From positions 30,958 to 94,957 of the forward strand of contig JBAZSX010000007.1 of NCBI GenBank assembly GCA_041662225.1: a DNA stretch of 64,000 bases. Direction: 5' to 3'. This stretch comes from Sulfurimonas sp. (GTDB lineage: Bacteria; Campylobacterota; Campylobacteria; Campylobacterales; Sulfurimonadaceae). This document shows, in pieces, positions 8,312 through 42,279 of the stretch; the stretch's first letter is position 1, and every line of letters begins with the position of its first letter. The notes under the pieces were generated by a model. The model was not told the DNA's origin. It did not search any database and saw only the letters and a program-made list of their open reading frames with translations. The position numbers were made by a program, and so were the translations under genes.

Positions 8312-8395
8312 CTTGTTAAAATGTGCCAAACTTGTTGTGAAGCAAGGACGGAAAGCTATGGGTCTTTGATAAGAGATCGCCAGGTTGCAATATTC
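8312..8395 (+). ncRNA. c-di-GMP-I (GEMM) riboswitch
   Basis: GCCAAAC-TTGTT-GTGA-AGCAA-GGACGGAAAGC...GGGTCT...GATCGCCAGGTTGC fits the GEMM-I consensus with a GNRA loop, G20, A47, C92 and a covarying C21-G46 pair. Confidence 0.85.
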
Positions 8396-23597: not shown

Positions 23598-25391
23598 TTA
23601 TATGTACCTAGGAACGACTATTTCTAAAGAGCTTAATATCTCTTCATTTTTCTCATCATTCTCAAAATAGTTATACTCTTTATGAGCCTCTTTTTGCTGT
23701 TGTCTTTGCCCTTGCTGCTGGCTTGAAGCAGAGTTGTCAGAGCTGTTACTAAAATTCAAGGTAGCATTATTTATTCCACTATTACTTAATTGAGCTTTTA
23801 ACTCCATTACATTTGCAGAGAGGGTGTTGACTGCTGTTGAATTTGAGCTGATATTCACATGTAAATTTTTGCCTCTTTGCACTACCGTCAACTCAATATC
23901 ACCGAACTTTTCCGGGTTGAGTTGCACTTTTACTCTGGTGAACGGCGCTTTGTAATCCTCTATTGCAGTTTTAACATCCGTAGAGAGATATTTAATCATC
24001 TGCTTGGCTTCATTTATTTTCACTTCAAAGCTATCGGCTTTATGTACGCTCAGTCCATCTAGCTTTGAGTTTTTGGAGTTATCGATTTTTGATTCCGTGT
24101 TGCCGACTAAAAGTTTTTCAAATGGGTTCTCGGATTGGCTTTTAGATTCAGATGAATTGCTAGATTCTATTGCCCTTGCAGCAACAACAGAGACGTTACT
24201 TGCAAGTTCGGATATGCTTTGCGTTGTTTTTTCTCCATGTAGGAGTGATTTTAGAGTCTCGTCTGCTCTGTTTTTAGTGGTTTTTTCTTCAACTTTCACT
24301 GTTCCGCCGGATTTAGCTTGAACCAACTGCTCTGTCGTGTGTTCTGTCGGTACCCAAGTTTTTAAAAGCGGTGCAGCTTTTGTCTCTTTTGTTTTAGGCT
24401 CTTCGATAGTTGCGATTTTATCAGATTGAACTACATCTATGTCGTTCTTAACTTCAGCTTTGAGTTCTTTAGTTTGCGGAGTTTTTACTTTTTTTTCTTT
24501 ATTATCAAAAGCTTCTGTTTTTATCTCTTTAATTTGTGGAACTTCCACAGCCGCGATCTCTTTAAAAGCCTCTTTAGCGATTGTTTTGTCTTTTGGAGCT
24601 TCTGCTTTAGCCACCGCCTCTTTTAAAGGTTCTTTGGCAACTGTCTTTGCATTCGGAGTTTCTGTCTTAAGTGCCTCTTTTAAAGGTTCTTTGGCAACTG
24701 TCTTTGCATTCGGAGTTTCTGTCTTAAGTGCCTCTTTTAAAGGTTCTTTGACGACTGCTCTTACTGGCTGAATCTCTTGCGGCGTACTCTCTTTTGTAGT
24801 TCTGTAAATGAGAGTTTCTGCTGATTTGCTATCGGGCTTATTGGTTTTGGTATTTGGGCGAACATCTTCCATTGTTATTTTACTAATATCTATGCCAAAT
24901 TTTTTGCCTACCTCAGCCAGACCTTTGAGTGTTTTTGGGAGCTCTTTTATCTCAGATTTTTTATAATCATCACTCTTAATAATTTTAGATTTCAGATACT
25001 CTTTGGCATCTTTTACCAGAACTTTTAGTTCCTCTTTACTTAATGATGAGGTAATTTTTGGATTTAATTCAAAGGGTGCAGTTGCTTCTTTTAACTCTTC
25101 TTTAATATCTCTGTTTTTAAGCAGTGATGTCAAGGTTTCAGTTTTTGTAGATGCTTTTGTGCTTTTTGTATCTTTTGCTTCACTCGGCAGAGATAAAACT
25201 AAAGCCCCGTTTTGAATAGGTTGAGTCTCTTTTTTGCCGCTTATTCCTTTTAAAAGTTCAGAGAACGACAGCTTTGATTTATCTTCTTTTGTCACTAAAC
25301 TTATGGGGGATGATGAACTATTTTTTGTTTTTACATCTAGCGAAATCATTTTATCTCCACATGACAAAGTTTTTATACTATACATTAGCAT
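23598..25391 (-). CDS. fliK: Flagellar hook-length control protein (likely start 25349, MISLDVK)
   Basis: C-terminal QLNPEKFG...LSNSG domain; position upstream of flgD; GGAG RBS before 25349. Confidence 0.88.
   Translation of the reverse strand: MLMYSIKTLSCGDKMISLDVKTKNSSSSPISLVTKEDKSKLSFSELLKGISGKKETQPIQNGALVLSLPSEAKDTKSTKASTKTETLTSLLKNRDIKEELKEATAPFELNPKITSSLSKEELKVLVKDAKEYLKSKIIKSDDYKKSEIKELPKTLKGLAEVGKKFGIDISKITMEDVRPNTKTNKPDSKSAETLIYRTTKESTPQEIQPVRAVVKEPLKEALKTETPNAKTVAKEPLKEALKTETPNAKTVAKEPLKEAVAKAEAPKDKTIAKEAFKEIAAVEVPQIKEIKTEAFDNKEKKVKTPQTKELKAEVKNDIDVVQSDKIATIEEPKTKETKAAPLLKTWVPTEHTTEQLVQAKSGGTVKVEEKTTKNRADETLKSLLHGEKTTQSISELASNVSVVAARAIESSNSSESKSQSENPFEKLLVGNTESKIDNSKNSKLDGLSVHKADSFEVKINEAKQMIKYLSTDVKTAIEDYKAPFTRVKVQLNPEKFGDIELTVVQRGKNLHVNISSNSTAVNTLSANVMELKAQLSNSGINNATLNFSNSSDNSASSQQQGQRQQQKEAHKEYNYFENDEKNEEILSSLEIVVPRYI
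24616..24750 (-). repeat. 57-bp coding tandem repeat in fliK (about 2.4 units)
   Basis: AKEPLKEALKTETPNAKTV repeated with identical nucleotide sequence. Confidence 0.88.
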
Positions 25392-25402
25392 TTATTATTC
25401 CA
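25387..25402 (-). promoter_or_regulatory. Sigma54 promoter facing fliK
   Basis: TGGAATAATAAATGCT on the minus strand, GG-N10-GC. Confidence 0.7.
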
Positions 25403-25408
25403 AGATTT

Positions 25409-25424
25409 TGGAACATTTAATGCT
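25409..25424 (+). promoter_or_regulatory. Sigma54 promoter facing the SPOR-barrel gene
   Basis: TGGAACATTTAATGCT, GG-N10-GC. Confidence 0.65.
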
Positions 25425-25450: not shown

Positions 25451-26299
25451 GTGCTTTTGAAATTATTTTATTTTCTTCTTATCTGTTTCTTCTTCTCAAC
25501 TTCGGTTTTTGCTGATTCAAAATATGTATTAGTTACAAAAACAAAAAGTCAGGCTGAATTGCCATACATAAAAGCTAAGCTTAAAAAATTAGAACTAAAT
25601 ATGGTTGCTTACAAATCTGAAGATGAATATACCGTATATTCCGGTGCTTTTAAAAACCATAAATCTGCGATTACTGCATTACAAAGTATTCAAAGTTATT
25701 TTCCTGAAGCTCTTATAGTCTCTTTTGATTCACAAACAATCCAAGAAGAAACAGGAATTTCAAAGGTGAGATACTTTTTTATAAATGGTTCACTTGCATC
25801 TTTAGGAATTCCGTTTGACCATTCTGTCCGAGAAGGAAATATAACGATAAATTCAATTGGCACGAGTGCTATGGGATATATTTTTGAAGCGGGATATAAC
25901 TTTGAAAATAATATTTTTATGACTTTAAGCTATTTGAATGCAGCCTCAACTACAAATACGATTGCAAATCTTTATAGCACAATCAACTATAAAATGAGAA
26001 TGGGTCAATTTGAGCCATATGCTGGAGTAATGGGAGGATTAAGCACTCTTAGCTGGACAAAGCCGCCAATGGGAACGGCTACTAGTGGAGCCGATAGTGC
26101 TCTGCTGTATGGTGCTCAAACGGGATTAAACTATGACACAGGTTTTAGTAATTTGGCTGTTTTCATAAACTATCAATTCGCTTTTATGAATCATAAAACA
26201 CCATTGCTAGTTACAAATACAACATCCGTAACCGGCTCTTCGACACTTACTCAGCAATTACTACACGGAATAAGTTTTGGAGTTCAATACAGATTTTGA
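25451..26299 (+). CDS. SPOR-like domain plus outer-membrane beta-barrel protein
   Basis: Signal peptide; YTVYSGAF..A..AL..I..YFPEA SPOR-like segment; amphipathic strands ending GVQYRF. Confidence 0.75.
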   Translation: MLLKLFYFLLICFFFSTSVFADSKYVLVTKTKSQAELPYIKAKLKKLELNMVAYKSEDEYTVYSGAFKNHKSAITALQSIQSYFPEALIVSFDSQTIQEETGISKVRYFFINGSLASLGIPFDHSVREGNITINSIGTSAMGYIFEAGYNFENNIFMTLSYLNAASTTNTIANLYSTINYKMRMGQFEPYAGVMGGLSTLSWTKPPMGTATSGADSALLYGAQTGLNYDTGFSNLAVFINYQFAFMNHKTPLLVTNTTSVTGSSTLTQQLLHGISFGVQYRF

Positions 26300-26307
26300 A
26301 AGAGTAA

Positions 26308-26739
26308 CTAGAAGTCTGAGTAGTTTAGATTAACTTCCATCTCAACTTCGCATAATCCATCTTTAAAAATTGTGTTTACGATTGTTGCATTTTTGATTAT
26401 ATTTTGAACATGTGCTCTAACTTCAGAACGAGTTACCTGCATATTTTTAATTGTGTCCTGACCTTCTACTGAAACTCCTTTTATACGTTCTGCTATAAGT
26501 CTGTATCCATCCACCATAGCAGCACGCTTTGCAAGGGCTTGCGCTTGAGCCGGCATTGTTGAAAATGCAGGAGCAACACCTTGACCAAATACGGTTATTC
26601 TTACATTTTTTTCAGGTTTTAATACAAGATCGCTGTCTAAATCTTTTACTTCTTGAAGTTTGCCTGACGGATAGCCGTCAGCCGCGTAAACGGCAGAGAT
26701 GTTGGCAACACATAGTATAAATAAAATTAAATATTTCAT
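26308..26739 (-). CDS. LPP20 / FlgP-like protein
   Basis: GQGVAP...AQAQALAKRAAMVDGYR..AERIKGV.V.G.DTIK resembles FlgP/LPP20. Confidence 0.75.
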   Translation of the reverse strand: MKYLILFILCVANISAVYAADGYPSGKLQEVKDLDSDLVLKPEKNVRITVFGQGVAPAFSTMPAQAQALAKRAAMVDGYRLIAERIKGVSVEGQDTIKNMQVTRSEVRAHVQNIIKNATIVNTIFKDGLCEVEMEVNLNYSDF

Positions 26740-26790
26740 TAAAATTCCTAACTTAAATTTTCAGAGGCATTATAGCAAAAAGCATATAAA

Positions 26791-27612
26791 TTAAAATGCG
26801 TACTTAATGCTAAACTTATTTCCGACAGTTTTAAAGTCGATATGATCTTTCTTTTCTATAGCTTGAAAATCTTCATACATGTAGCTATAGCCTAAATAAA
26901 TATTGCTTACAACTCGATACTCTATGCCAAACTGATAGCCGGTAGCTTTAGATTCTGAATAGGAGAGGGAACTTATATTTCCATAGAGAACAAAGTTGTA
27001 ACGGTAATACTTAAAGCCTGCGTATGGCAACACAATATTAGCATCCACTTTGTCATACATGTAAATTGCGCTTGGATTTGCATTGTCTTTCATTTCTACA
27101 ATATAATCAATTACTTTTAGATTTGCTCCAATATCTAGCTCTATGTCACCTAAATAAAAACCTTTTTTTACCGCACCTTTTGCCTTAAAGTCTTGAAAAA
27201 CCACTACATTAAATACTTTATTGTCTATATTTGTAGCAGCATTTGTAAATTGTGTTGAAACCATAGTTACGGTTCTGTTAAAAGCAACATCATTCTTTTG
27301 TACCATGTTAAAGTAGCTTATATAAATATTTGGCACATAGTCGTAATCAAACCGTGTTTCTACTGAAAAGAATGATGATGTTGAATTTGGATATTTAAAA
27401 TCATCTTTGAAGTCAATAACGGACGGAGCTGCATTTGAAAGAGTTCCTTGAAAGTCTGACATATATATTGCAGCTTCAACTGTTGGATGTATTTTTGTAT
27501 ACCAAACAGCATCCCTCGAGTCTCCATCACTTTTAGCACTCTCCGCAAGAAGCGACTCACCCGCATAAGAAGATACAAACAGAATAAACAATAAAAAAAA
27601 CTTTAACAACAT
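26791..27612 (-). CDS. Outer-membrane beta-barrel protein (TIGR04219 / YfaZ-like)
   Basis: Signal peptide; VPNIYISY segment; alternating aromatic strands; C-terminal IKYAF. Confidence 0.65.
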   Translation of the reverse strand: MLLKFFLLFILFVSSYAGESLLAESAKSDGDSRDAVWYTKIHPTVEAAIYMSDFQGTLSNAAPSVIDFKDDFKYPNSTSSFFSVETRFDYDYVPNIYISYFNMVQKNDVAFNRTVTMVSTQFTNAATNIDNKVFNVVVFQDFKAKGAVKKGFYLGDIELDIGANLKVIDYIVEMKDNANPSAIYMYDKVDANIVLPYAGFKYYRYNFVLYGNISSLSYSESKATGYQFGIEYRVVSNIYLGYSYMYEDFQAIEKKDHIDFKTVGNKFSIKYAF

Positions 27613-27677
27613 AAAAACCCCTTTTCACCTTTTTAATTGCAAGTATTTTAACATAATATTTAAATTACCGCAGAAAC

Positions 27678-30026
27678 TCATGATGCATTTGCATCGGTAT
27701 ATCTGTACACTTTAGTAAACTGTATTTCACTTGATACATTTGAGTCTAATTTAGCCCTTTGGCATCCGTATAAGCCATTGGTGTCTTTGGGTGTTTGTAT
27801 ATAAATCTGCTTGCCACTTGCCCATGCTCTGTCAAAGGCAAAATAGTAACTGTCTTGAAAAACAGTTACATTTTCATTGGTTTTCGTTGCACCCAAGAGT
27901 GGGTAGTAGAGTACAATCTCATTTGTTGACTCAAATCCAGAATTATTGTTAAAATTAAGCGTAAGACCATTTACGGAGTCGCTTTCTCTTATTGCTTCGG
28001 TTGCGTTACTATCAATTAAAGTATTTTTATAATAGCTATCTTTAATACAGGCAAATGCATCGAAAACGGCATCTGTTTTGTCAAATATACTGTATGTTAC
28101 ACTCTCTCCGGTAACATTCATGTCAACATAGGTAGAGTTTGTATATGCCGGTTCTAAAGCAGTTTCAACAACAGACTGAACTCTTGGAAATGTCCACTCA
28201 TGTATATTTGCATCTGTAGAGAGCAGAGTAAATACTCTTTTCACCTCTGCTATTTGTGATATTGCAAATGTTCTATTACCATCTGAAATTATAATATTCA
28301 TATCTAGTTCAAGTACCGATAAAACTTCCGATATACTCAAATTTTCATATCTGTTATCCAAAATCCGACTCAAGAGAGCATTTTTTACTTTGTACTGCAA
28401 ATCTTTTTTTTGAACTTCTGTTAATGTTCTAGACATTACTTTTTTTGCAATAAATTCTATGAGTGACTTTGTAATTTGTATCTCTTGTGAGAGGGTAAAG
28501 AGTTGAATATTTTGCATGGTATCACTTACTATATCGCTGCTGCTCAGTCCAAAGGCACTCCCAAGACTCGTCTTAGAAGCCTCAAATGCTGCTTTGTTTT
28601 TTATAGCTGACTGATAAAAGAGAATTTTAGCCAAATCCGTAAATGGAGTTAAGGCAATTCTGGTAGTCGAGAGCGTACTGTTGACATCCAATATATTCTG
28701 AAACTCACCCGAAAAAGATTTGTTGGTAGATATATCCGTTCCTCCGAATCCTATAAGAGGAATCATTGTGTTTTTATTGACTTTTACATTAGAAAAACTG
28801 AAATTTCCGTCGCTGAGAGTAGTTGCCGATGGTTCTGTTGTTCCGCATACGCCGTTGCTGTCTAAATCTAAGCAGACTTTAGCTCCGCTGATGTAGCCAT
28901 CCACCATAACACCCCCAAAAGAGAGTGTTGTTGTGTTGCTCTCTACCGGCACTGTCGAGTTTGTATCGGTCGTATTTGTGTCTGTAGTATTCGTATCGGT
29001 CGAGTTCGTGTCTGTAGTATTCGTATCAGTTGTATTTGTGTCCGGAACAGCAAAGATATTTATATTTATTTTTATAGGAGTTATAGAAGCTCCGCTAGCC
29101 GCATTTTCTAGTGCTGCAATAACTTTTTCCTGCTCTGTTTCTAAAGCAACTTGATAAGTGTTAATATTTGAATAAGTTAAATTTACATCTGCAATAAAAG
29201 AGTCTATTGCCATCTTAAGTTCTGCAACTTGAGCTATTACAAAACTCTTTTCATTTGCCGGAATGGTAATAGTAGAGAGTGTTTCAAGCTTTGCAAGCAC
29301 CTTTTCAATGTTTATATCTACATCTTCACTAATCTGTGTAACTATTGCACTTTTTATCTCTCTTTGGAGTTGAAGCAGCTGCACATATGTTAATAAGCCG
29401 CCTTTTGCTTTGGCGGCAGCAGCTTCAATGAGTGCCAAAGTCTGCTGAATCTCCTGCGTACTTGCAAATACGGTATCCCATTTCATGGGGTCTTTATTGA
29501 CATAATCTCTTTTAATTTTATAAGCATTCGCTATTAGAGTGGTAGAATTTTGCAGTGAAGAGTAATTTTGTGCTGACGAATTAAAAAATGAGGTGGCAAT
29601 CATGTCTGTTAAAGGTGTAACGAATAGCTGCCCAGCTTGTGGGGCGTTGTCAGTATCAACAATGCTCATGAATTTACCTGTAAAGCTTTTGTTTGTCGCT
29701 GTATCTACACCGCCGTCTGCTATAATCGGTAGGTAGAGCGTGCCTGTTATATTTGCATCCCCAAAGCTGAATGTTCCGCTGTTTGAGGTAAGAGTAGATG
29801 GCTCACTGACATCACAGGAGCCATTCATATTTAAGTCTATGCAAACTTTAGAATTTTTTATGTAACCATCGACAACAGCACCGCTGAGTGTTATTTGTTT
29901 TGTTGTTGTTCCCGTACTGTTGCTTGTTGTTTCACAGCCGGTAAAAAAGAGTAAAAAGATAGAAGTAAAAAATAAAGAGACCAAATATTTCAAGAAGATA
30001 CTCCCCACCATATAGATGGGGTGCAT
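27678..30026 (-). CDS. Large surface lipoprotein: two VDGYI-Cys domains, DTN[TS]T linker, shared C-terminal domain
   Basis: Lipobox FTG-C; two copies of G.VVDGYI..AKVC.D...NG.C...EP...T...G.F.F. Confidence 0.8.
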   Translation of the reverse strand: MHPIYMVGSIFLKYLVSLFFTSIFLLFFTGCETTSNSTGTTTKQITLSGAVVDGYIKNSKVCIDLNMNGSCDVSEPSTLTSNSGTFSFGDANITGTLYLPIIADGGVDTATNKSFTGKFMSIVDTDNAPQAGQLFVTPLTDMIATSFFNSSAQNYSSLQNSTTLIANAYKIKRDYVNKDPMKWDTVFASTQEIQQTLALIEAAAAKAKGGLLTYVQLLQLQREIKSAIVTQISEDVDINIEKVLAKLETLSTITIPANEKSFVIAQVAELKMAIDSFIADVNLTYSNINTYQVALETEQEKVIAALENAASGASITPIKININIFAVPDTNTTDTNTTDTNSTDTNTTDTNTTDTNSTVPVESNTTTLSFGGVMVDGYISGAKVCLDLDSNGVCGTTEPSATTLSDGNFSFSNVKVNKNTMIPLIGFGGTDISTNKSFSGEFQNILDVNSTLSTTRIALTPFTDLAKILFYQSAIKNKAAFEASKTSLGSAFGLSSSDIVSDTMQNIQLFTLSQEIQITKSLIEFIAKKVMSRTLTEVQKKDLQYKVKNALLSRILDNRYENLSISEVLSVLELDMNIIISDGNRTFAISQIAEVKRVFTLLSTDANIHEWTFPRVQSVVETALEPAYTNSTYVDMNVTGESVTYSIFDKTDAVFDAFACIKDSYYKNTLIDSNATEAIRESDSVNGLTLNFNNNSGFESTNEIVLYYPLLGATKTNENVTVFQDSYYFAFDRAWASGKQIYIQTPKDTNGLYGCQRAKLDSNVSSEIQFTKVYRYTDANAS
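28953..29042 (-). repeat. Six 15-bp repeats encoding DTNTT/DTNST
   Basis: DTNTT-DTNTT-DTNST-DTNTT-DTNTT-DTNST. Confidence 0.9.
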
Positions 30027-30032
30027 TTTATC

Positions 30033-30449
30033 TTAATTTGTCTTTATCTCGTATATAGGAATATTAAGAATGGAACATATATGCTCAAAAATATTTTCTG
30101 CAAAATCATAAAATTCTTTAGCATCTTTGAGGGTTGGTTTACCATAGGGAAGTAGTCCCATATCTCCAGGGTATCTTGATTCAATATATAAACTATCAAG
30201 CAGATTAATTAAATCATTATTGTTAATGCTTACATCCTCTTTGCAAATATTGAAGAGTTTATTTAAAGAGTGTATTTTTGGAATATCTATGTTTTTGGAT
30301 GTTATAAAAGCTTTGAGTGATTTTTCGATGGACTGCTGCGAGTGAAATGCAACAATAGATGTAAGATGCTCAGCTTTTATAATATAGCTGATATTTTCCA
30401 AATCTAAATAAGCAGCCTTAAGCCACTCTTTTGACAAAATTAAACTCAT
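30033..30449 (-). CDS. HEPN-domain protein
   Basis: EWLKAAYLDL, FHSQQSIEKSLKA, KIHSL and YIESRYPG motifs. Confidence 0.9.
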   Translation of the reverse strand: MSLILSKEWLKAAYLDLENISYIIKAEHLTSIVAFHSQQSIEKSLKAFITSKNIDIPKIHSLNKLFNICKEDVSINNNDLINLLDSLYIESRYPGDMGLLPYGKPTLKDAKEFYDFAENIFEHICSILNIPIYEIKTN

Positions 30450-30778
30450 AATATTGCAACTCCTTTTTCCATTATCTCTTTGGCAAACGAGCTGTTAAGT
30501 TCAATAAATTTTTGATGCATTAATTTGGTGTGAGTAATTAAATCGGTTGGATATTTTTGTAAAATATCTTGCATGGCTCTAGCTACTTTTAAGTGAACTT
30601 CACTTTTTTCTTTAAAACTTTGAGGAGTGAAGTTGTCTTTAGTTACAACATACAAATCGATATCACTATCTTCATTGGGAGTACCATAGGCATAGGAACC
30701 AAATAAAATGATTTTATAAGGGTCGAGAGGTTTGAGTCTTTCAATAATTTCATGCTTTAAAACTTCAATATTTACCAT
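30446..30778 (-). CDS. Minimal nucleotidyltransferase (MNT)
   Basis: IILFGSYAYGTPNEDSDIDL; 4-bp overlap with the HEPN gene. Confidence 0.92.
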   Translation of the reverse strand: MVNIEVLKHEIIERLKPLDPYKIILFGSYAYGTPNEDSDIDLYVVTKDNFTPQSFKEKSEVHLKVARAMQDILQKYPTDLITHTKLMHQKFIELNSSFAKEIMEKGVAIL

Positions 30779-30856
30779 TTCAATCCCTATTTTGTGCTAG
30801 TTTTGATTATACTAAAAATAATCTAAAACTAATCACTAAGCAGGAATCAAATATAT

Positions 30857-30895
30857 GCCATCGCTTCCGAGTAGGAGGGGATGGCTTGCTTTGCG
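30857..30895. repeat. Short palindromic repeat, family A (contracted copy)
   Basis: GCCATCGCTTCC-GAGTA-GGAGGGGATGGC; arms shared with 36693 and 39182. Confidence 0.65.
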
Positions 30896-30908
30896 AGAAA
30901 GTTTTGTC

Positions 30909-31691
30909 TTAGTTTTTTATACCCTCGAGGGGCACCGAGGTCTCTTTTAAAGTAGGAAAAGGCGGTATTTGCATGGATGGAAAAATGCCCTCAAAGCACT
31001 TTTGTTCTTTAAAATCATAAACAAAAAACTTCTTGGCTTCATACTCTTTGCTAAATTCAAAAAAAGTTTTTGGCAGGGCTGGTCCGTACTTGTAACTTCT
31101 TTTTGTTTTTGCTTCTACTTTTGGATAAATTAGCACAATGCGTGTGTCATTATAAATCCCCTTTTCATGGTGTGAAAGGTAGCGAGATTTTGCACTCATA
31201 GTTTTATCTTTGCTCACCACAGAATCTTGTGTTCTTCCAGAATCAAGCAAAAAGTCATATTGCTTGTCTTCTAAAATCTTCTGACATGCAGGGTTTATAG
31301 TATTACTTTTTATATCCACTTTTACACCGGAATCAGCCAGTACAAAAAAGGTTACATTTGGCTCCAAATATTTTAGAAGCAACAGATCTCCGGCTAGTTT
31401 CTCTGACGAGAATGCTGCCCACAGCTTACTTTCACTGTCATAAACAACTACAAACTTTACCTCTGCAATGGTGCCAAAAGTATTAAAAACATCCACTCCA
31501 TCCAGAGGAGTTGTAAGCTTGTTCCAACCTTTTTTTAAGTCGTATGTTTTTGAGTTGTAAAGTGCAGATATGCTAGGAATCTCTTTTGAGAGAATCTCTC
31601 TCTCTGCTTGAGAGAAAGATGGAGAAACTTCTTGCAAAGAGCTTGCAAGAAGTGTTATACAGAACAGTGAAAGGGTAAATAACTGCTTCAT
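30909..31691 (-). CDS. Secreted hypothetical protein with a LKKGWNKL-type domain
   Basis: Signal peptide; YDLKKGWNKLTTP...YD....W...LEPNVTFFV. Confidence 0.7.
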   Translation of the reverse strand: MKQLFTLSLFCITLLASSLQEVSPSFSQAEREILSKEIPSISALYNSKTYDLKKGWNKLTTPLDGVDVFNTFGTIAEVKFVVVYDSESKLWAAFSSEKLAGDLLLLKYLEPNVTFFVLADSGVKVDIKSNTINPACQKILEDKQYDFLLDSGRTQDSVVSKDKTMSAKSRYLSHHEKGIYNDTRIVLIYPKVEAKTKRSYKYGPALPKTFFEFSKEYEAKKFFVYDFKEQKCFEGIFPSMQIPPFPTLKETSVPLEGIKN

Positions 31692-31715
31692 TGTTTTATA
31701 AACCTCACTCGCTCC

Positions 31716-34700
31716 TTATGGGAGTAGTGAAGTATTTGCAGCAGTTATTTTTGTTAAAGCTATCGGAGTCATAATACTTGCATCTGCAGCAATCTGAGTT
31801 GCAGGGAATGAACCTTCGTAAATCGATCCATTATACTCTAAAAAGAATTTTTTAGTAGCATAAGAAACTACACTTTGAATTTGTGCTACCGTTGTTGCAT
31901 CAACTTTATAGTTAGCAGTTCTTGCAACATCTTGTGTAAAGTTTGCATTTGCTATCGGCTGGAATGAGATACGAGTCGTCGCTCCACTTGGAAGAGTAGC
32001 CAAACTTACACCTGCATTTTCAGTTGCAAGAGTTTGTGTAGCAGTATTCGTACAATTGTTGTCATACACAGCTCCAAGCTGAGATTTTAAGCCAACACCT
32101 TGTGTATGTGTAATCACATTAGCCGATTTTAGTAAACTTGCAAATATAACCTCTTTAGCATCTGAGAGATTTGAGCTATTCATAGCACCATCTGCTGCAA
32201 CTATGCGCAATGTATTCATGTCACCATAAGTAAACTCCGCACAAGCGTTCAATGTCGCTGCATTTCCTGTTGCTGGAACAGTTTTTATTATAGCAGCACC
32301 TCTTGCTGATTCCACTTCCGGAATATAGTTTTTAAACACATAGAAGTTTGCTGTCGTTCCTGTTGCGCCAAGTGCTAAATCTGTACCGCCTGAAACAGTT
32401 GCTGTAACATTTTCCGGAGCGGCATAATCAATGCTTAGTGTACTATTGGCTGAAACAGCTTGACCTTTACCATTTACAGCGCGTACACCAATAGCGATTG
32501 GTCCCGATTGATTTTGAGAAAAACTTGTCAATGCATAGTTCGATACATCTGCCGTAAAAGTATTCGAAGTACTTACTCTTTTGAGTGGAACTTCTTCTCC
32601 TGCAACAGTAATATATGCTGAACCGGCTACGGCATCATCAAGTCCGGTAATTGTTACCGATATTTGACCGCTGCTCATGATATTTGTTGTCGCTAGTTTA
32701 GGCGTATGAATAGAGTCATTGCTAAAGTAGTATGAATAAGAAGGACTTGTAAATGTAGCCGAAACTATAGAAACAACATCCGGTGTTTTGTTTTCTAAAT
32801 AGACCCAGTAGCCGGCATTATGGTTAATGTTAAAGAGGTTAAACTCATTGTTTAAGAACCACTCATCTTCATTACGCGTAATATCTATACTGTCCCAAAC
32901 AATAGTGCTAGAAGTAGTGCTAGTAATAGCATCTAGCTCAGTTGTAGCTTTTAAGATAGCTCTTACATCATAGCCTGTTCCGGCATTACGAAGTGTGTAG
33001 AGTGGACCAAAAATAGCGAAGTTAGGTGAATATGCAGGGTTTGTTTTAAGGTCTGCAACTAAATCACCACTTCCTAGTGTTATGTTGTTGTCGCCGGACT
33101 GAACCGCACCAGTAATAGTAGGAACAGTAAGATCACTATTACCGTCAATGATTGCTAAAGAAAAAGCAGAGGTATTAACATCGGCACCCGTTATAGCAAG
33201 ATCAACAGTATAAGGTGTAACAGCAGCAGGCAAAGTATCTGCAGCCACAGAACCGGTTGGAATTGTATAGCTGTGTGATCCGGATATATGTTTACCCGCT
33301 GTTTTAGCATATGTATTGATACTTAAAACAATTCTGTCAAGTAACGATATAAACTCACCATAGGTATTAATATTGTCAGTAACTCCAGGAACGCCACCTG
33401 CAATACTACTATTAAAATCTACAGCCGTTTGTGCAACACCATTTATTGTAACAACATATGTAGCATTAGCATCAAGGTCATTCATATAACCAGCAGCTAC
33501 AGTAGTAATCGTAGTAATTTTTTGTGTATATTGGTCTACCGGTAATCTTGCAAGGCTATCAAGAGAGTAAACTCCACCGACGGCACCTTTTGCTAAATCC
33601 GTAGCTGTCGAACTTGCAGAGAGTATATCTATCGTTCCGCTTGCTACATCTTTGACATCAAAAGTAGAGATAGAGTTTGTTGCAACTACAAGCTTTGGAG
33701 TGGCATCTGTAGTAACTGTCGCATTAACTTCTGTCGCAGTTGCCCCTGCATTTGCTGCATTGATATTAGCAGACAAAGTGGTTATAGTATTGACCGCACC
33801 GGTGTTTGATGCTACGGTTGCAGTTTTTGCACCTGAAACTGTCACATTGCCCACATTGCTCGCACTCGAATTATCGTCTGCAAAAACACGCGTATAAGTG
33901 GCATCTTGAAGACTAAAAGGGGTTAGATTGGCTATGATAAGCTTGTCTGCCACATCATCATTGTTTGTATCGACTTGTGTAGCCACAGGATGCACTGTTG
34001 CACCAATAGCTTCAATATTTGTCTCTGCAGTAGCCAAGCTGGTAATAATATTTACCGTTTGGGCACCGCCCGTTGCATTAGAAGCCGTAAATTTGAGTTT
34101 GGCACCAGCAGTGATAAGAGAACTTGTAGATGTAGCACCTGTTAGAACTTCCGTCAGTGTTGTATATTCGCCATATGCCGATGTAGCCGGAGTAGCCTCA
34201 GCATCAGCAACGGTGGTTCTGGTACCGGATACATAAGGTTTCGCACCCGTCAGTGTAGTTGTAGGAATTACTGCTACTGCAGTACCACTTACTGTAAATT
34301 TTCTATCTGAGACAAATATAAAATTTCCAGTAGCCCCACCATACAATGCCTTAATATTGAATGTTTGAGGAAGTTTGCCAAGAAGTTTTGCAGACTCTAT
34401 ATTTCTATTAATTCGTACGGTAGAATTTGCATCTGCTGCCACCCCTAGTACAATAGATAGTGAATTGAGTCCTGAATCATCTGTAAGAGTTACCGTATCA
34501 CCAGCAGCCCATCCAGAAGTAATTAAACCGGTTGCCGCATGACGGATGAATGGTTTGTGGTCGTCAAATGAGAGCATGTTCCAGCCGGCTGTAAGCGTGC
34601 TGTTGCTGCTTTCATCTACATACATTGCAGGATCCGGAATACCGCTAGGAGCAGTTGCCTGACCAAGCACGAGATTAACTGGACCATCAGTATCTATAGT

Positions 34701-35531
34701 TAATGCTCCAAGAGAGTCAACTCTATCTGCTCTACCCCAATATGCTTTACCTGCAGTAAAACTAGTGAAGTCTTGAGCAGCTGTCGGTGCGCCTCTTTGA
34801 TTGACTTCCCACTGCTGCGTAAGTGCGTTGAAGTGGTAAAAACTTGCTGTTTCACCCGTAGTGTCCTGATGAACAGTTGCGTTGTAAAATCTTGGGTCAA
34901 CAGGATTGTTGGTTGAGTTAAAATCCAGCACGCCTGAAATTGTTTTGATTTGATTTGATGAACCTATAACAGGAGTAGCACCGGTAACGGCAGTTAAAGC
35001 ATTTGCCCAAGTACTATCTTGACTAATTGTTGCAGAATAAAGAGCACCATTAAGCAAGATTTCTATTGCGTTGCCCTCGAGCGAAGATTTGTAGTTAAAC
35101 TTAACATTTGGCACACTCGTAGAACCGACTTTCATATACATACTGCGAACCGGCTCGATAGGGTCAAATCGTACGCCCGCTATATTAACACCGACTGATA
35201 ATGTACCAATAGCCGGAGTAGAATTTGCTATACCTTGAAGTGAACCTAAATATCCTGTAGGAGTACCTGTCGTAGAAGTTAAACCTTCCGTTACATTCTC
35301 ATCTGTTGGGATATTATCAGTAAGAGTTGTATAACCTGCTGAAAAACCGGAAGAGGTTACAACACCCGTACTAGGGGTACCATTACTAAAACCATTCACA
35401 CCAAACAGATTCCACACACTATCCACAGTTGGCGAAGCCAATGGTAAGTATGTTGCACCATCATCCGCCGCTGCCATATTGCCTAGTGCTATAATAGTCA
35501 CTAAACTTAATAAACTTTTTTTATAATTCAT
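31716..35531 (-). CDS. 1271-aa secreted Thr/Ala/Ser-rich surface protein (S-layer / adhesin-like)
   Basis: AAGGA RBS; Sec signal peptide; beta-rich low-charge composition; AGKAYW, AGWNML and NAGYWV motifs. Confidence 0.8.
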   Translation of the reverse strand: MNYKKSLLSLVTIIALGNMAAADDGATYLPLASPTVDSVWNLFGVNGFSNGTPSTGVVTSSGFSAGYTTLTDNIPTDENVTEGLTSTTGTPTGYLGSLQGIANSTPAIGTLSVGVNIAGVRFDPIEPVRSMYMKVGSTSVPNVKFNYKSSLEGNAIEILLNGALYSATISQDSTWANALTAVTGATPVIGSSNQIKTISGVLDFNSTNNPVDPRFYNATVHQDTTGETASFYHFNALTQQWEVNQRGAPTAAQDFTSFTAGKAYWGRADRVDSLGALTIDTDGPVNLVLGQATAPSGIPDPAMYVDESSNSTLTAGWNMLSFDDHKPFIRHAATGLITSGWAAGDTVTLTDDSGLNSLSIVLGVAADANSTVRINRNIESAKLLGKLPQTFNIKALYGGATGNFIFVSDRKFTVSGTAVAVIPTTTLTGAKPYVSGTRTTVADAEATPATSAYGEYTTLTEVLTGATSTSSLITAGAKLKFTASNATGGAQTVNIITSLATAETNIEAIGATVHPVATQVDTNNDDVADKLIIANLTPFSLQDATYTRVFADDNSSASNVGNVTVSGAKTATVASNTGAVNTITTLSANINAANAGATATEVNATVTTDATPKLVVATNSISTFDVKDVASGTIDILSASSTATDLAKGAVGGVYSLDSLARLPVDQYTQKITTITTVAAGYMNDLDANATYVVTINGVAQTAVDFNSSIAGGVPGVTDNINTYGEFISLLDRIVLSINTYAKTAGKHISGSHSYTIPTGSVAADTLPAAVTPYTVDLAITGADVNTSAFSLAIIDGNSDLTVPTITGAVQSGDNNITLGSGDLVADLKTNPAYSPNFAIFGPLYTLRNAGTGYDVRAILKATTELDAITSTTSSTIVWDSIDITRNEDEWFLNNEFNLFNINHNAGYWVYLENKTPDVVSIVSATFTSPSYSYYFSNDSIHTPKLATTNIMSSGQISVTITGLDDAVAGSAYITVAGEEVPLKRVSTSNTFTADVSNYALTSFSQNQSGPIAIGVRAVNGKGQAVSANSTLSIDYAAPENVTATVSGGTDLALGATGTTANFYVFKNYIPEVESARGAAIIKTVPATGNAATLNACAEFTYGDMNTLRIVAADGAMNSSNLSDAKEVIFASLLKSANVITHTQGVGLKSQLGAVYDNNCTNTATQTLATENAGVSLATLPSGATTRISFQPIANANFTQDVARTANYKVDATTVAQIQSVVSYATKKFFLEYNGSIYEGSFPATQIAADASIMTPIALTKITAANTSLLP

Positions 35532-35570
35532 AAACTATCCTTTTTAAAATTTAATTACATAGCACGAGTG

Positions 35571-36218
35571 CTATCTATATACTTTTTTGATGTTGATTTG
35601 TGTACCGACAACATTATTCAAAGTCAACCTGTAACATGAAGGTTTTGTAGTAATAGCAGATTGCACATACATTGTGTTGTTTATGCCAGCTATACTCGTA
35701 TCACTCCATGCTATATCGTATGTAAGGAAAAAAACGCCTTCCATCAAATAGCTTGTATATCCTTGCAAATTTAGGTTTCTTATATCCGGAAATGTCTTGT
35801 AAAACAGAGTTACCCATGTTTTCCCGGCATTTACAGAATCACCTTCTAGGTGCTCAGATCTAATTCCTAAGCCTTGATCTTTAACACTAAAAAATTCAGA
35901 GCCATTTTCTCCGGCATTTATACCATTATACGAAGCATCACCTGCTACATGGTATGTACTTGCATTGCAAGCGTTTGCATCATAAATTGCACCGGCTGTA
36001 TCAAAGTTACTCTCTGTAGGGCCGACTGAACCGCCATTTCCTGTCGAATTGGTATCAGTTGTTGTATTAGAATCTGGGTATATTGGATTAGGGTCTATGA
36101 AACCTATATCAATACCACCATTATTTGTACCTGTTGAACCTACTGAATTTGACGATGTATCCACACCGCAAGAACAGAGAAAAATAGTTACAAAAATTGA
36201 GACTAATAACTTCATCAT
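35571..36218 (-). CDS. Lipoprotein consisting mainly of the shared C-terminal domain
   Basis: Lipobox LCS-C; FDTAGAIYDANAC...YDIAW...MYVQ...CYRLTL...KKVYR. Confidence 0.8.
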   Translation of the reverse strand: MMKLLVSIFVTIFLCSCGVDTSSNSVGSTGTNNGGIDIGFIDPNPIYPDSNTTTDTNSTGNGGSVGPTESNFDTAGAIYDANACNASTYHVAGDASYNGINAGENGSEFFSVKDQGLGIRSEHLEGDSVNAGKTWVTLFYKTFPDIRNLNLQGYTSYLMEGVFFLTYDIAWSDTSIAGINNTMYVQSAITTKPSCYRLTLNNVVGTQINIKKVYR

Positions 36219-36235
36219 ATACCTTACACTCTTTC

Positions 36236-36481
36236 CTAGTTAGGAAGTCGTGGAGGCACTCCTAGGGATGGGTTAAGACTAACGCCAAGTCCATTTGCAG
36301 TGGATGTGCCACTTACATTTCCATTATCGACGACTGCAGGAGTTGGTGTTGTTGTTGTACTTGTGTTACTTGTACTTCCACCTGTGCTACCGCTTGCTGA
36401 GGTTGCCCCACTACTACTCTCTCCACACCCTGCCAACATTAACATGCTAATGCTAGCCAAAAGGAAAATTCCTTTTTTCAT
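36236..36481 (-). CDS. Small Ser/Thr/Gly-rich lipoprotein
   Basis: AGGAG RBS; lipobox LAG-C; Pro-rich C-terminus. Confidence 0.75.
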   Translation of the reverse strand: MKKGIFLLASISMLMLAGCGESSSGATSASGSTGGSTSNTSTTTTPTPAVVDNGNVSGTSTANGLGVSLNPSLGVPPRLPN

Positions 36482-36517
36482 TTTAACTCCTTTTAAATTG
36501 AAAATTGTTTCATGTCT

Positions 36518-36544
36518 ATATCGACAACATAAAACAATTTATTA
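36518..36544 (-). promoter_or_regulatory. Candidate sigma28 (FliA) promoter
   Basis: TAATAAAT-N11-GTCGATAT on the minus strand. Confidence 0.5.
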
Positions 36545-36692
36545 ATATAAATTTACGAACATTGTAAATTCCGCAAAAGGAACTCATCAATTGTTGCAAC
36601 TGAGCAAATAGTGTTCCAACTTTTATTTGGAATTGTTATTTTGTTTGTTGATGGTTTACTTAGGGTGGAGTGAGGGAAAACGATGTTCTCTT

Positions 36693-36778
36693 GGAGGCGA
36701 TGGCTTGCCTTCGCTAAAGTGATGTCAGGGAAGCTGTACTTCTGCAGCACTCTCTACCTCTAGCGCGCCATCGGTTCC
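36693..36778. repeat. 86-bp inverted-repeat element, family A
   Basis: GGAGGCGATGGCTTGCCTTCGCTAAAGTGATGTCA...GCCATCGGTTCC; same length and ends as 39182-39267. Confidence 0.8.
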
Positions 36779-36819
36779 GAAAGAGAAAGTTATTTGGTTT
36801 TAAATGCTTATTGCAGTTT

Positions 36820-37671
36820 TTAAAATTTGTACTGAATGCCAAAGAGTATATTGTCTAATCTTTTGTGATGCAGTTCTGAACTGCTACCCGGTACCTCTAA
36901 TGTAGATACATGATCCATCGCAGCAACTCTATATGCTAAGGAGAGTGAAATTTTATCATCTATCGGATAGCTAACACCAAACTGTGCACCTGTTAATACG
37001 GATGTGCTTTGGTCATCAAAAGATGTAGGATTTTCTATGGGGTACATGTTCCATTTGAGGTAACTGTTTCCTATAAATAAGCCGAAATAGGGAGAAAAGT
37101 TGTAGTAAGTTAAAAACTTGTAATTAAGAGTGAGGTAAATATTGTCCATTATTATGTCACCGTTCATTATTTGAGAATACCCTAAAGTACAAAAGATCCC
37201 ATTTCTGAACTCATAGCCTAAATTCAGACCGTAGCTTCCAAAATCTTCATATGGAGCCTTTGCAACAACGCTTCCCTCTTTGCCGATGTGGTTGGATGTA
37301 GAGTTACCGTAACCTAAATCTAAGCCGACAAAGAAGTTATCATCATCTCTGCTTGGAATATTTTTGCTTTGACTGCCTTTTTGTTTTACAACCCTCTGAG
37401 CATCTTCGCTTTTAACTATAAAAGCTCCCGGAAAATATATTTTTATTATCTCTAGTCCCTCTTTTGCAGACTCTTCATCATTATAGGGACCGGCATAGAT
37501 GAGATATTTGGAGTCATTATAGCTGTATTTTATAGGCACACCGACCTGCGAGAATGTTGAATTCAGAGACAATAATTTGTCTTTGCTTGATGTTTTAGCT
37601 ATCTTAATGTAAGACTGCTCATAGCCAAAAACAGTTGATACCAATAAAAAAATAAAAATTATAATTTTCAA
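36820..37671 (-). CDS. SPOR-like domain plus outer-membrane beta-barrel, paralog of 25451-26299
   Basis: YLIYAGPY...A..GL.II..YFPGA; LSPYFG; C-terminal GIQYKF. Confidence 0.78.
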   Translation of the reverse strand: MKIIIFIFLLVSTVFGYEQSYIKIAKTSSKDKLLSLNSTFSQVGVPIKYSYNDSKYLIYAGPYNDEESAKEGLEIIKIYFPGAFIVKSEDAQRVVKQKGSQSKNIPSRDDDNFFVGLDLGYGNSTSNHIGKEGSVVAKAPYEDFGSYGLNLGYEFRNGIFCTLGYSQIMNGDIIMDNIYLTLNYKFLTYYNFSPYFGLFIGNSYLKWNMYPIENPTSFDDQSTSVLTGAQFGVSYPIDDKISLSLAYRVAAMDHVSTLEVPGSSSELHHKRLDNILFGIQYKF

Positions 37672-37713
37672 GCTAACTCCCCTTTCTCTTCTATGTTTGG
37701 ATTTTGTTTAAGT

Positions 37714-37740
37714 ATATCGACACATTTTTATTTTCCTTAA
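37714..37740 (-). promoter_or_regulatory. Candidate sigma28 (FliA) promoter
   Basis: TTAAGGAA-N11-GTCGATAT on the minus strand. Confidence 0.55.
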
Positions 37741-37807
37741 CAAGGAGGCTTAATGTTTTTATGTTAGAATATCAACTAAAATAATCTTTCATAATTAGGG
37801 GCTGATA

Positions 37808-39163
37808 TTGAGATACAGCGTAAGAGTGGCAATTGCCGGCATTATACTTATCCTCTTATCCGCTTGTGAAAATTCAAAATTTGTCAGAGAAAATTTATCT
37901 ATTAACGGCACTGCTGTTGATGGTTATATCTCGGGTGCAAATATCTGTTTGGATTTAGACAGTAACGGAATCTGCTCTGCTACGGAAGCAAAAACTACCA
38001 CGGCTGCTGATGGAACATTTAGCTTTAGCAATATAGAAAAAGGTGCTAATGAATATGGAACTGTAATATTGACAGGGGGAACAGATACGGCAACCAATAA
38101 AGTGTTTGGTGAAGTGCTCAAAAATGTTATAGATACTAAAAATGTCCATTCAACTATTTTAATAACTCCCTTAACCGACTTAACAGCCATAAATTTTTTG
38201 GATTTATCTGTAAAAAACAGTACAAAACTGAATGATTCAAGAGAGATGATAGAGGGCGGGCTCTCTCTTTCGCAAACTGATTTAGATAAAGACCCGATGC
38301 AAGATATTAAGATGTTTTTTAAAGTTCAAGATTTGCAATACATAAAAAAAATAGTGCAAAATGTCACCATCACCTCGCTAGCCCAAGATATAAATGTTAC
38401 TAAGAAACAAGAGATAGATTATAAAATTAAAAAGGCACTATTAACTACTATAGAAGAGAAGATGTGGGACACTTTAGATTTGTATATTGTATTGTCTGTC
38501 ATGGAAGCCCAAACCGGTGCCCATATATCTACACAAGCAAAGGAGTTCGTAGCCAAAAATCTTAATCAATTTAGGGATTCGCTTAAAGTGTTGAGTGCTG
38601 ATTCAAGATTAACGGTTAACATGCTGAGTAGGCTTCAGGTTCTTTTGGAAATACAAAGAGACACCTCCATAACTGCTATAAACTCCAAGGATTATAACGC
38701 AACAATAACTCCCATAGATTTAAACATTACTATTGATAAGATTACTCAAACGGATTTTAACACTACGGATGCAATCTATGATGGAGAGGCATGTTTAGAC
38801 AGCAGTGCCTATAATGTAATTGACAATACCAGTTTTATTCCCGATTCTACAGCGGACACAACAAATGGGGTCAATATAAAATCCAACATAGGGTTCAATA
38901 CTAAAATAGAAAAAACAGTAGTACAGCTCTTTTATCCTGATTTAGCTATGGCAAAAACAGCTGCAAAGACAATGTTTATTGGAGATAAATATTATCTTGA
39001 GTTTGATAATGCATGGATTTCAAATAGTGATAATAAAGTGTATATTCAAACGCCAAGTGGCGATAGCAACCTTTCTGAATGTTATAAACTTAATCTTTCA
39101 TCCACAAATGCCAATGTACTTACAACAACAAAAGTATTTAGATACTCGGGCTCTCTGTTTTAG
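37808..39163 (+). CDS. Surface lipoprotein, shorter paralog of 27678-30026
   Basis: Lipobox LSA-C; one GTAVDGYISGANICLDLDSNGIC domain plus the shared C-terminal domain. Confidence 0.8.
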   Translation: MRYSVRVAIAGIILILLSACENSKFVRENLSINGTAVDGYISGANICLDLDSNGICSATEAKTTTAADGTFSFSNIEKGANEYGTVILTGGTDTATNKVFGEVLKNVIDTKNVHSTILITPLTDLTAINFLDLSVKNSTKLNDSREMIEGGLSLSQTDLDKDPMQDIKMFFKVQDLQYIKKIVQNVTITSLAQDINVTKKQEIDYKIKKALLTTIEEKMWDTLDLYIVLSVMEAQTGAHISTQAKEFVAKNLNQFRDSLKVLSADSRLTVNMLSRLQVLLEIQRDTSITAINSKDYNATITPIDLNITIDKITQTDFNTTDAIYDGEACLDSSAYNVIDNTSFIPDSTADTTNGVNIKSNIGFNTKIEKTVVQLFYPDLAMAKTAAKTMFIGDKYYLEFDNAWISNSDNKVYIQTPSGDSNLSECYKLNLSSTNANVLTTTKVFRYSGSLF

Positions 39164-41954: not shown

Positions 41955-42042
41955 GGAGAAATTATATCCTTTTAGTGAATTAAATCATTATATTGTGGTA
42001 CAATTTCAACTCCAAAATTTTAAAGAAAGTGGGTGATGTGAT

Positions 42043-42255
42043 ATGCCTGGTATTATACTACGCAGTGATGATAATTTTGATGCATCTTACCGCCGTTTCA
42101 AAAAGCAGACTGACCGTAACTTAATCGTTACTGAAGCTCGTGCTCGCCGTTTCCATGAAACAGCAACTGAAAAGCTTAAGAAATTCAAAATTGCTTCTCG
42201 CAAAAAAATGCTTAAGCGTCTTTATATGATGAGACGCTACGAATCACGCCTCTAA
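42043..42255 (+). CDS. rpsU: 30S ribosomal protein S21
   Basis: MPGI...[16 protein letters not shown]...ARARRF basic 70-aa protein. Confidence 0.93.
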
Positions 42256-42279
42256 GCGACAGCCTTCGGGCTGCGTTTA
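42256..42279 (+). terminator. Probable intrinsic terminator after rpsU
   Basis: CAGCC-TTCG-GGCTG hairpin followed by a short T run. Confidence 0.55.

Follow-up and report, generated by a model that had tools for sequence, protein, structure and literature searches.

A cluster of genes for exported proteins occupies positions 25451–39163 of a 64-kb stretch of Sulfurimonas sp. DNA from a groundwater metagenome (the whole stretch is called the window below), where it sits between the flagellar hook operon and the thiI-like and dnaG genes. The genes of this cluster form one co-inherited, syntenic genetic unit. Our favored reading, which we hold tentatively and at slightly less than an even chance, is that they represent an accessory envelope module of Sulfurimonas that is wired into the flagellar hierarchy and builds an S-layer (surface-layer)-like coat of glycoprotein, or else a structure located at the pole that bears the flagellum. 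A coat or polar structure was favored because of the composition, the load of glycosylation sites (sequons), the hypervariable centre and the relative transcript abundance of big1271, a protein of 1271 amino acids (aa); these are traits that would be expected of an exposed structural protein.

The cluster genes are inherited together in a fixed order

The distribution of the cluster was surveyed in 25 Sulfurimonas genomes and 16 genomes of other genera. Five protein families, namely big1271, its neighbor p260, the beta-barrel protein barrel273, the SPOR-barrel proteins and the lipoproteins that share a C-terminal domain (C-domain), were each present in the very same 7 of the 25 genus genomes, and none was found in the other 18 or in the 16 genomes of other genera. 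A scan of species-representative genomes then gave 25 public loci, all but one (the strain-labelled record SAG-AH-194-C21) from metagenome-assembled genomes and none from a named cultured type strain, which are labeled Sulfurimonas, Sulfuricurvum, Sulfurimonadaceae, Helicobacteraceae, Campylobacterales or Campylobacterota (in the following, G denotes genomes, L loci of relatives and C contigs of the host genome). The order [C-domain lipoprotein]–big–p260–(lipo782-like)–barrel273–FlgP' was kept in these loci, with fliK-flgD-flgE directly after FlgP', the FlgP-like gene, wherever this flank was visible, and with the SPOR-barrel/lipo451 pair usually on the dnaG side. Synteny and co-occurrence were among the checks named by an earlier interpretation made from the letters alone (the sequence-only reading), and the outcome is in line with its proposal of a system. 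A set of unrelated neighbors that merely resembles a system, for which only the missing functional annotation speaks, is refuted by this all-or-none co-occurrence and conserved order, and we regard it as exceedingly improbable.

In two cluster-free congeners, the site is empty: fliK is followed there by a gene of 140 aa, then by the thiI-like gene, a helicase gene and dnaG. Genomes with and without the cluster interleave on a DnaG tree, which as a single-gene tree is weak evidence, and this interleaving together with the fixed site suggests an old presence of the cluster followed by repeated loss. We rejected a horizontally moving island in view of the same site in deeply diverged genomes, the lack of mobility genes and the interleaving on the DnaG tree.

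The open reading frames (ORFs) were found where the sequence-only reading had placed them, and its statement that every gene except an MNT-HEPN pair encodes an exported protein was borne out, as signal peptides or lipoboxes were read from all ten other translations. Six of the leaders are of the signal-peptidase-I type (SPOR-barrel A, SPOR-barrel B, FlgP', barrel273, p260 and big1271), and four carry a lipobox (lipo782, FTGC; lipo215, LCSC; lipo81, LAGC; lipo451, LSAC). The MNT-HEPN pair was correctly named (HEPN, 3e-23; NTP_transf_2, 6e-12 in Pfam). It is a passenger insertion inside the operon between p260 and lipo782 and not a part of the system, and it was seen in this genome alone. Of the three closest relatives, L023 and L024 lack it at this site and have a p260–lipo782 gap of about 22 nt, compared to about 760 nt in the third (L025). 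Among the cluster proteins in PADLOC, only MNT matched candidate defence models.

The sequence-only reading had recognized no known secretion-system core, and this was confirmed by the absence of any such family match in Pfam, NCBIfam and PADLOC. For the ten cluster proteins, there was no Pfam or NCBIfam match (E<=0.1) to the type I secretion system (T1SS), the secretin of the type II system (T2SS), the type V system (T5SS), an usher, the type IX system (T9SS), CsgG, Slam of the type XI system (T11SS) or FapF. No family match was obtained for big1271, p260, lipo782 and lipo215 in Pfam, NCBIfam and PADLOC, and no PDB match for big1271, p260, barrel273 and the lipoprotein C-domain in sequence and profile searches. 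Likewise, no description of the cluster was found in the literature on Sulfurimonas S-layers, on Sulfurimonas flagella and their cryo-electron microscopy, or on SPOR domains with beta-barrels. The system could thus be matched to no described one in literature, family and fold searches, which agrees with its proposal as undescribed.

Some loci hold additional genes. In G014, a giant lipoprotein of 913 aa with PKD-like repeats lies between fliK and SPOR-barrel A (L011, 2796–5537), and in G012, a repeat-rich lipoprotein of more than 1600 aa lies between p300 and the barrel (L013 15650 to L014 677).

big1271 resembles surface-layer proteins in composition and variability

The residues of big1271 include 13.6% Thr, 12.7% Ala, 9.3% Ser and 0.2% Cys, with Asn also abundant and with acidic residues (D+E, 8.0%) exceeding basic ones (K+R, 4.8%), which agrees with the typical composition of S-layer proteins (acidic, few Cys, rich in Thr, Ser and Ala, 40–200 kDa). 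The many PglB sequons mentioned in the sequence-only reading were a real enrichment: 11 strict PglB-type sequons were counted in big1271 against 1.2 expected, 16 in lipo782 against 0.75, and 5 in lipo451 against 0.43, loads that place the three proteins in the top ~1% of the genome. The genome also holds a PglB-like ORF with the STT3/PglB motif WWDYG.

Among strains with DnaG proteins 95–98% identical, big1271 was only 58–61% identical, compared to 77–98% for the neighboring cluster genes. The divergence was concentrated in a hypervariable centre at residues ~550–800 (18–30% identity), while the N-terminus and residues 850–1000 were conserved. Some genomes carry two diverged copies of big1271, each with its own C-domain lipoprotein. 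In L033 (10001–18544) and L034 (4155–12516), two such paralogs with 30–32% identity to the query stand in opposite orientation, each with its C-domain lipoprotein ahead of it and with a single p260 between them.

An AlphaFold2 model of residues 23–1222 (50 homologs) was confident and mostly beta, with FN3-like domains at the C-terminal end, a predicted local distance difference test score (pLDDT) of 83 and a predicted template modeling score (pTM) of 0.74. Upon searching PDB and viral models with it in Foldseek, we obtained generic FN3/Ig tandems only, and a phage tail-fibre origin was accordingly not indicated. The model of p260 was confident and contained two beta domains, for which Foldseek gave no fold match in PDB (best E 0.04). 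p260 had been described as a partner of big1271 with a related motif; the two proteins do share a C-terminal stretch of 35 residues, a resemblance that is real but weak (hhalign E 2.5e-4, probability 43%). When 1.8 billion representative proteins were searched with a p260 profile, only ~37 relatives of full length were obtained, along with loose domain matches in unannotated large proteins, and the p260 N-domain recurs in many large secreted proteins.

The FN3-like tandem domains and this recurrence of the p260 N-domain are consistent with a polar or surface adhesin, in which big1271, as a large adhesin with FN3 domains, would be displayed on the outer membrane, held there by the lipoproteins and barrels, and made together with the flagellum, allowing swimming cells to settle on the surfaces of minerals, sulfur or partner cells. 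The variable centre and the sequon load would fit the exposure of such a protein, and co-expression with motility genes is plausible. However, the big1271 model is compact and has no stalk of repeats, no autotransporter, T1SS or usher partner is present in the cluster, and no known adhesin family was matched, and we consider an adhesin unlikely.

Gram-negative S-layer glycoproteins include SapA of Campylobacter fetus, RsaA of Caulobacter, VapA of Aeromonas and TfsA/B of Tannerella. Like them, big1271 is a large, acidic, Cys-poor and Thr/Ala/Ser-rich single protein, with conserved ends, a variable centre, a heavy load of glycosylation sites, dedicated neighbor genes and, judged by contig coverage, apparently high relative transcription. 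It differs from them in being headed by a signal peptide for Sec and not by a T1SS signal, in the lack of T1SS, T2SS and T9SS genes from the cluster, and in its linkage to flagellar genes and promoters; a sequence or fold relation to these proteins was not seen.

Transcription of big1271 in the field was evident from two freshwater metatranscriptomes. Of the 31-letter words sampled from this gene, 51% were present in one and 28% in the other, and the metatranscriptome contigs matched big1271 and lipo215, which is transcribed along with it, many of them exactly. In both data sets, big1271 was the best-covered coding gene of the window, with contig depth being a poor measure of expression, and the hook genes, the barrels, dnaG and the other ~40 kb examined were almost bare. 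Of the protein-coding sequence of the window apart from big1271 and lipo215, ~55 kb in all, next to nothing was contained in them. Another transcribed segment was found between dnaG and the ORF at 42328 (42024–42260, +), where ~200–230 nt lay under exact metatranscriptome contigs at a depth of 14–23, far above the neighboring sequence. We take this segment, which had no Rfam family at gathering score, for a 5' leader or a small RNA.

FlgP' is an extra copy of the basal-disk protein FlgP

Sequence comparison identified FlgP' as an additional copy of FlgP, the protein of the flagellar basal disk, without the lipid anchor. Residues 43–139 aligned without gaps to residues 65–161 of Campylobacter jejuni FlgP (9HMF_C; E 4e-20), and the Pfam family LPP20 was matched at threshold (26.8 bits, cut-off 25.9). 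The sequence-only reading had noted the likeness to FlgP, to which a correction has to be added: no cluster copy has a lipobox. The leader ends with ...ISAVYA/ADGYP, a cleavable signal peptide, and the copies in G014, G012, G007 and G001 lack the lipobox as well. At least one copy of the FlgP family was present in 24 of the 25 genus genomes, and a second copy was confined to cluster genomes, being found in six of the seven; the remaining one, with a completeness of 88%, showed the cluster copy alone. The canonical flgP of the host, located on contig C9 behind a sigma54 motif, encodes a lipoprotein (ITGC); after it come an ORF of 136 aa, possibly flgQ, and a gene for a sigma54 activator, likely flgR.

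The partner of FlgP' is barrel273, which precedes it in every locus. barrel273 matched the outer-membrane beta-barrel family TIGR04219 at 3e-10, with 39.6 bits against a cut-off of 105, and would be a distant relative of this family at most. We rejected barrel273 as FlgQ because FlgQ is described as a double-FlgP fold (PMC12222027), the small ORF that may be flgQ following flgP on C9, and as FlgO on the lack of a FlgO match in Pfam.

Compared with the FlgP/FlgQ basal disk of the Campylobacter-type motor (PDB 9HMF; Drobnic et al. 2025, PMC12222027), the cluster similarly has a FlgP match encoded beside the hook genes, and sigma54-type motifs head its units, in L031 and L040 directly upstream of FlgP'. 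It differs in that FlgP' has a signal-peptidase-I leader and no lipobox cysteine for outer-membrane anchoring, that its partner is a 273-aa beta-barrel and not FlgQ, and that FlgP', unlike the canonical flgP, is an extra copy restricted to 7 of the 25 genus genomes. The H-ring of Vibrio and Arcobacter (FlgO, FlgP and FlgT) is alike in that a protein of the FlgP family is encoded along with a partner in the outer membrane, as an accessory of the flagellum at this membrane. Unlike its components, barrel273 has no FlgO or FlgT match in Pfam, and the H-ring has neither the 1271-aa protein nor the lipoproteins of the cluster.

These relations bear on the alternative that the cluster encodes a periplasmic accessory of the flagellar motor, namely an additional disk, collar or cage located beneath the outer membrane where the flagellum is based. 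The ring would then be formed by FlgP', barrel273 and the SPOR-barrels would be the membrane and wall anchors, and big1271 and the lipoproteins would make up a periplasmic scaffold. A true FlgP paralog with a conserved barrel partner, the position beside fliK in nearly all loci and the sigma54 motifs of the rod/hook class agree with such an accessory; PglB glycosylates periplasmic proteins too, and the motors of Campylobacterota bear large FlgP, PflA/B and PflC/D disks (PMC12222027). We nevertheless consider this alternative, with the roles assigned in it, somewhat unlikely. An internal scaffold would not usually have a centre as variable among near-identical strains as that of big1271, and 18 of the 25 flagellated congeners do without the module. 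In addition, in situ transcription of big1271 lies well above that of the hook genes, and duplicated, diverged copies of it occur in some genomes.

SPOR-barrels and lipoproteins lie at both ends of the cluster

Two paralogous proteins combining a SPOR-like domain with a beta-barrel had been proposed, and SPOR-barrels A and B were indeed related (29% identity, E 1e-30). Domain counts over 11 members of this family gave OMP_b-brl in seven (best 1e-14) and an NspA match at 3e-6, indicating a solid 8-stranded barrel of the OmpA/NspA type. Like the OmpA-type tethers between outer membrane and peptidoglycan, the SPOR-barrels join an 8-stranded barrel to a periplasmic, predicted wall-binding domain. 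Unlike those tethers, they have the reverse domain order, a weakly scoring SPOR-like domain in place of OmpA_C, and an occurrence solely within the cluster.

Three of the lipoproteins have a common domain, as had been claimed. lipo782 is a tandem duplication of the N-module of lipo451 followed by the same C-domain (34% identity, 2e-70), and the C-domain of lipo215 matched that of lipo451 at 2e-10. The C-domain alignment has a conserved Cys pair, a Trp and a KVYR end. The inverted placement of the SPOR-barrel and VDGYI-lipoprotein paralogs at the two cluster ends was also found as described. The VDGYI module contains a CxDxNxNGxC(D/G) loop with two Cys that resembles a calcium-binding DxDxNG loop; it is located at residues ~48–75 and ~372–400 of lipo782 and ~34–60 of lipo451. 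This N-module also occurs on other very large lipoproteins of relatives, such as that of a 3852-aa ORF in G012.

The cluster carries promoter motifs of both flagellar classes

Consensus matches to sigma54 and sigma28 promoter motifs are both present in the cluster. The sigma54 motif, TGGAAY-N6-TGCT with the correct –24/–12 spacing, occurred five times in the window, compared to 0.32 expected, and none of 100 shuffles reached five, which bears out the candidate sigma54 promoters of the sequence-only reading. The five sites lie before flgE, inside fliK ahead of flgD, before fliK, before SPOR-barrel A and at 36603–36618; the last is new, since only a sigma28 box had been proposed there. The back-to-back pair between fliK and SPOR-barrel A was kept in L023–L025, and a slightly looser motif was found upstream of the lipoprotein–big operon in 12 of 19 related loci with this region present, and in several loci also before lipo451-like or SPOR-barrel genes. 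Genome-wide there were 32 matches. The intergenic ones precede FlgH, FlgF/G, FlgB, FliK, FlgD, FlgE, FlgP, FlgL, FlgI, a flagellin and two cluster units, and further genes with the motif encode a methyl-accepting chemotaxis protein (MCP), a DnaJ-domain protein, a PAS protein and three unknowns.

The sigma28-like box GTCGATAT was found at eight non-coding sites of the genome, including those before flaG (Pfam 5e-21), flgM (1e-7), lipo81 and SPOR-barrel B, in keeping with the candidate sigma28 promoters of the sequence-only reading. It was kept in the closest relatives, and the variant GCCGATAT occurred in two further loci.

As an alternative, the cluster may encode a cell-wide S-layer or coat without a functional tie to the flagellum, the adjacency to fliK being historical and the sigma54 motifs being unused or serving another activator. 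The composition and in-situ transcript abundance of big1271 would fit an S-layer protein, the genome contains a second sigma54 activator, and the hook genes are not co-abundant in the metatranscriptomes. On the other hand, the FlgP paralog is an integral, ever-present member, the linkage to fliK is kept in deeply diverged genomes, the sigma54 motif class is otherwise nearly all flagellar in the host genome, and the sigma28-like box is common to flaG and flgM. Taking both sides together, we rate a coat untied to the flagellum as unlikely, to the same degree as the adhesin.

Two observations concern the flagellar genes themselves. The longest fliK ORF starts at 25391; because the sigma54 motif at 25387–25402 overlaps this start and relatives begin with MISLD..., the real start of fliK is probably the ATG at 25349, giving 583 aa. 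The motif inside fliK, TGGAATAAATAATGCT (23763–23778, –), lies ~176 nt ahead of flgD and is letter-for-letter identical in many related loci, suggesting a conserved internal promoter for flgD-flgE2. Elsewhere in the genome, four tandem short flagellin genes (~281–286 aa; C22:15159–19011, L048) have a strict sigma54 motif just upstream of the first one (C22:16026), and a further flagellin fragment lies at the end of contig C7.

A flagellum-associated surface structure as the favored model

In the favored model of a flagellum-wired envelope module, big1271 would be the main structural subunit. It would be exported by Sec, N-glycosylated in the periplasm by PglB and exposed outside the cell, where its central region diversifies. 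The upstream C-domain lipoprotein and the downstream p260 may be its dedicated partners in anchoring or assembly. FlgP' and barrel273, probably co-transcribed with it, would form a periplasmic ring or foot attached to the outer membrane and derived from the basal disk, and the two SPOR-barrel proteins would act as staples between peptidoglycan and the outer membrane. Production of the structure would coincide with that of hook and filament, because the cluster units carry sigma54- and sigma28-type promoters.

Several points weigh against this model. The 130-kDa big1271, once exported by Sec, still has to cross the outer membrane, for which the cluster encodes no route; elsewhere in the genome and unlinked to the cluster there is a secretin/GspE/GspF-like locus, as read from ORF sizes and N-terminal sequence. 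The promoter motifs are consensus matches and not mapped transcription starts, and the genome has two sigma54 activators; therefore, the sigma54 motif alone is no proof of control by FlgR. In the metatranscriptomes, EF-Tu and the flagellins were far deeper than big1271 (a comparison affected by pooling of several strains), and the hook genes with the same motif were barely represented while big1271 was, and therefore the regulation cannot be identical. The link to the hook genes noted in the sequence-only reading was supported in position and in promoter motifs. The SPOR assignment is at threshold level, with PF05036 matched in 5 of the 11 family members (best E 1.9e-4); the score of SPOR-barrel B equals the gathering score (21.0 bits), and paralog A was not matched. 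Finally, the cluster parts of the relative G007 are on three contigs.

We also weighed a new kind of outer-membrane assembly device derived from flagellar parts, in which a non-lipidated FlgP' ring on barrel273, held by the SPOR-barrel staples, would serve as a portal or foundation for placing Sec-exported, N-glycosylated big1271 and p260 on the surface with timing by sigma54 and sigma28. This version is quite unlikely in our estimate.

If the favored model of a flagellum-wired envelope module is true, Sulfurimonas, an abundant sulfur-oxidising group, couples a variable glycoprotein surface structure to flagellar assembly, and a basal-disk FlgP copy without a lipid anchor has been reused, that is, a motor accessory has been recruited for another task in the envelope. 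The SPOR-barrels, the small barrel, the C-domain lipoproteins and p260 would then be new partners by which a large glycoprotein is anchored in the envelope of Gram-negative cells. Five of the core protein families are at present without any annotation. The hypervariable centre of big1271 points to strong selection from outside, such as by phages or grazers, which may be relevant to the ecology of Sulfurimonas in groundwater and at redox interfaces.

Features of the cluster and its surroundings

The genes and promoter elements are compiled in Table 1.

Table 1. Genes and promoter elements of the cluster, with positions in the window
Feature	Position	Strand	Description
sigma54-type –24/–12 element TGGAATAATAAATGCT	25387–25402	–	faces fliK
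sigma54-type element TGGAACATTTAATGCT	25409–25424	+	faces SPOR-barrel A, back to back with the fliK element
SPOR-barrel A	25451–26299	+	signal peptide, SPOR-like N-domain, 8-stranded OmpA/NspA-like C-terminal barrel
FlgP paralog (FlgP')	26308–26739	–	basal-disk protein homolog, signal peptide, no lipobox
barrel273	26791–27612	–	outer-membrane beta-barrel, directly upstream of FlgP'
lipo782	27678–30026	–	two VDGYI/helical modules, DTNTT sequon array, shared C-domain
HEPN (30033–30449) and MNT (30446–30778)	30033–30778	–	Pfam; passenger
p260	30909–31691	–	secreted, two beta domains, directly downstream of the large protein
big1271	31716–35531	–	secreted, 1271 aa, Thr/Ala/Ser/Asn- and sequon-rich, mostly beta, hypervariable centre
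lipo215	35571–36218	–	C-domain lipoprotein, directly upstream of the large protein
lipo81	36236–36481	–	small Ser/Thr/Gly-rich lipoprotein, first gene of the long minus-strand unit
sigma28-like –10 box GTCGATAT	36518–36525	–	upstream of lipo81
sigma54-type element TGGAACACTATTTGCT	36603–36618	–	upstream of the lipo81-lipo215-big1271 unit
SPOR-barrel B	36820–37671	–	SPOR-barrel A paralog
sigma28-like –10 box GTCGATAT	37714–37721	–	upstream of SPOR-barrel B
lipo451	37808–39163	+	VDGYI module, helical module, C-domain; divergent from SPOR-barrel B

The adjoining hook operon comprises flgE (19356–21491), a second flgE-like gene, flgD and fliK, and the flanking genes were all confirmed in Pfam. In addition, the window contains a cyclic di-GMP-I (c-di-GMP-I) riboswitch at 8315–8392 (+), which scored 55.9 bits in Rfam, compared to a gathering score of 35.

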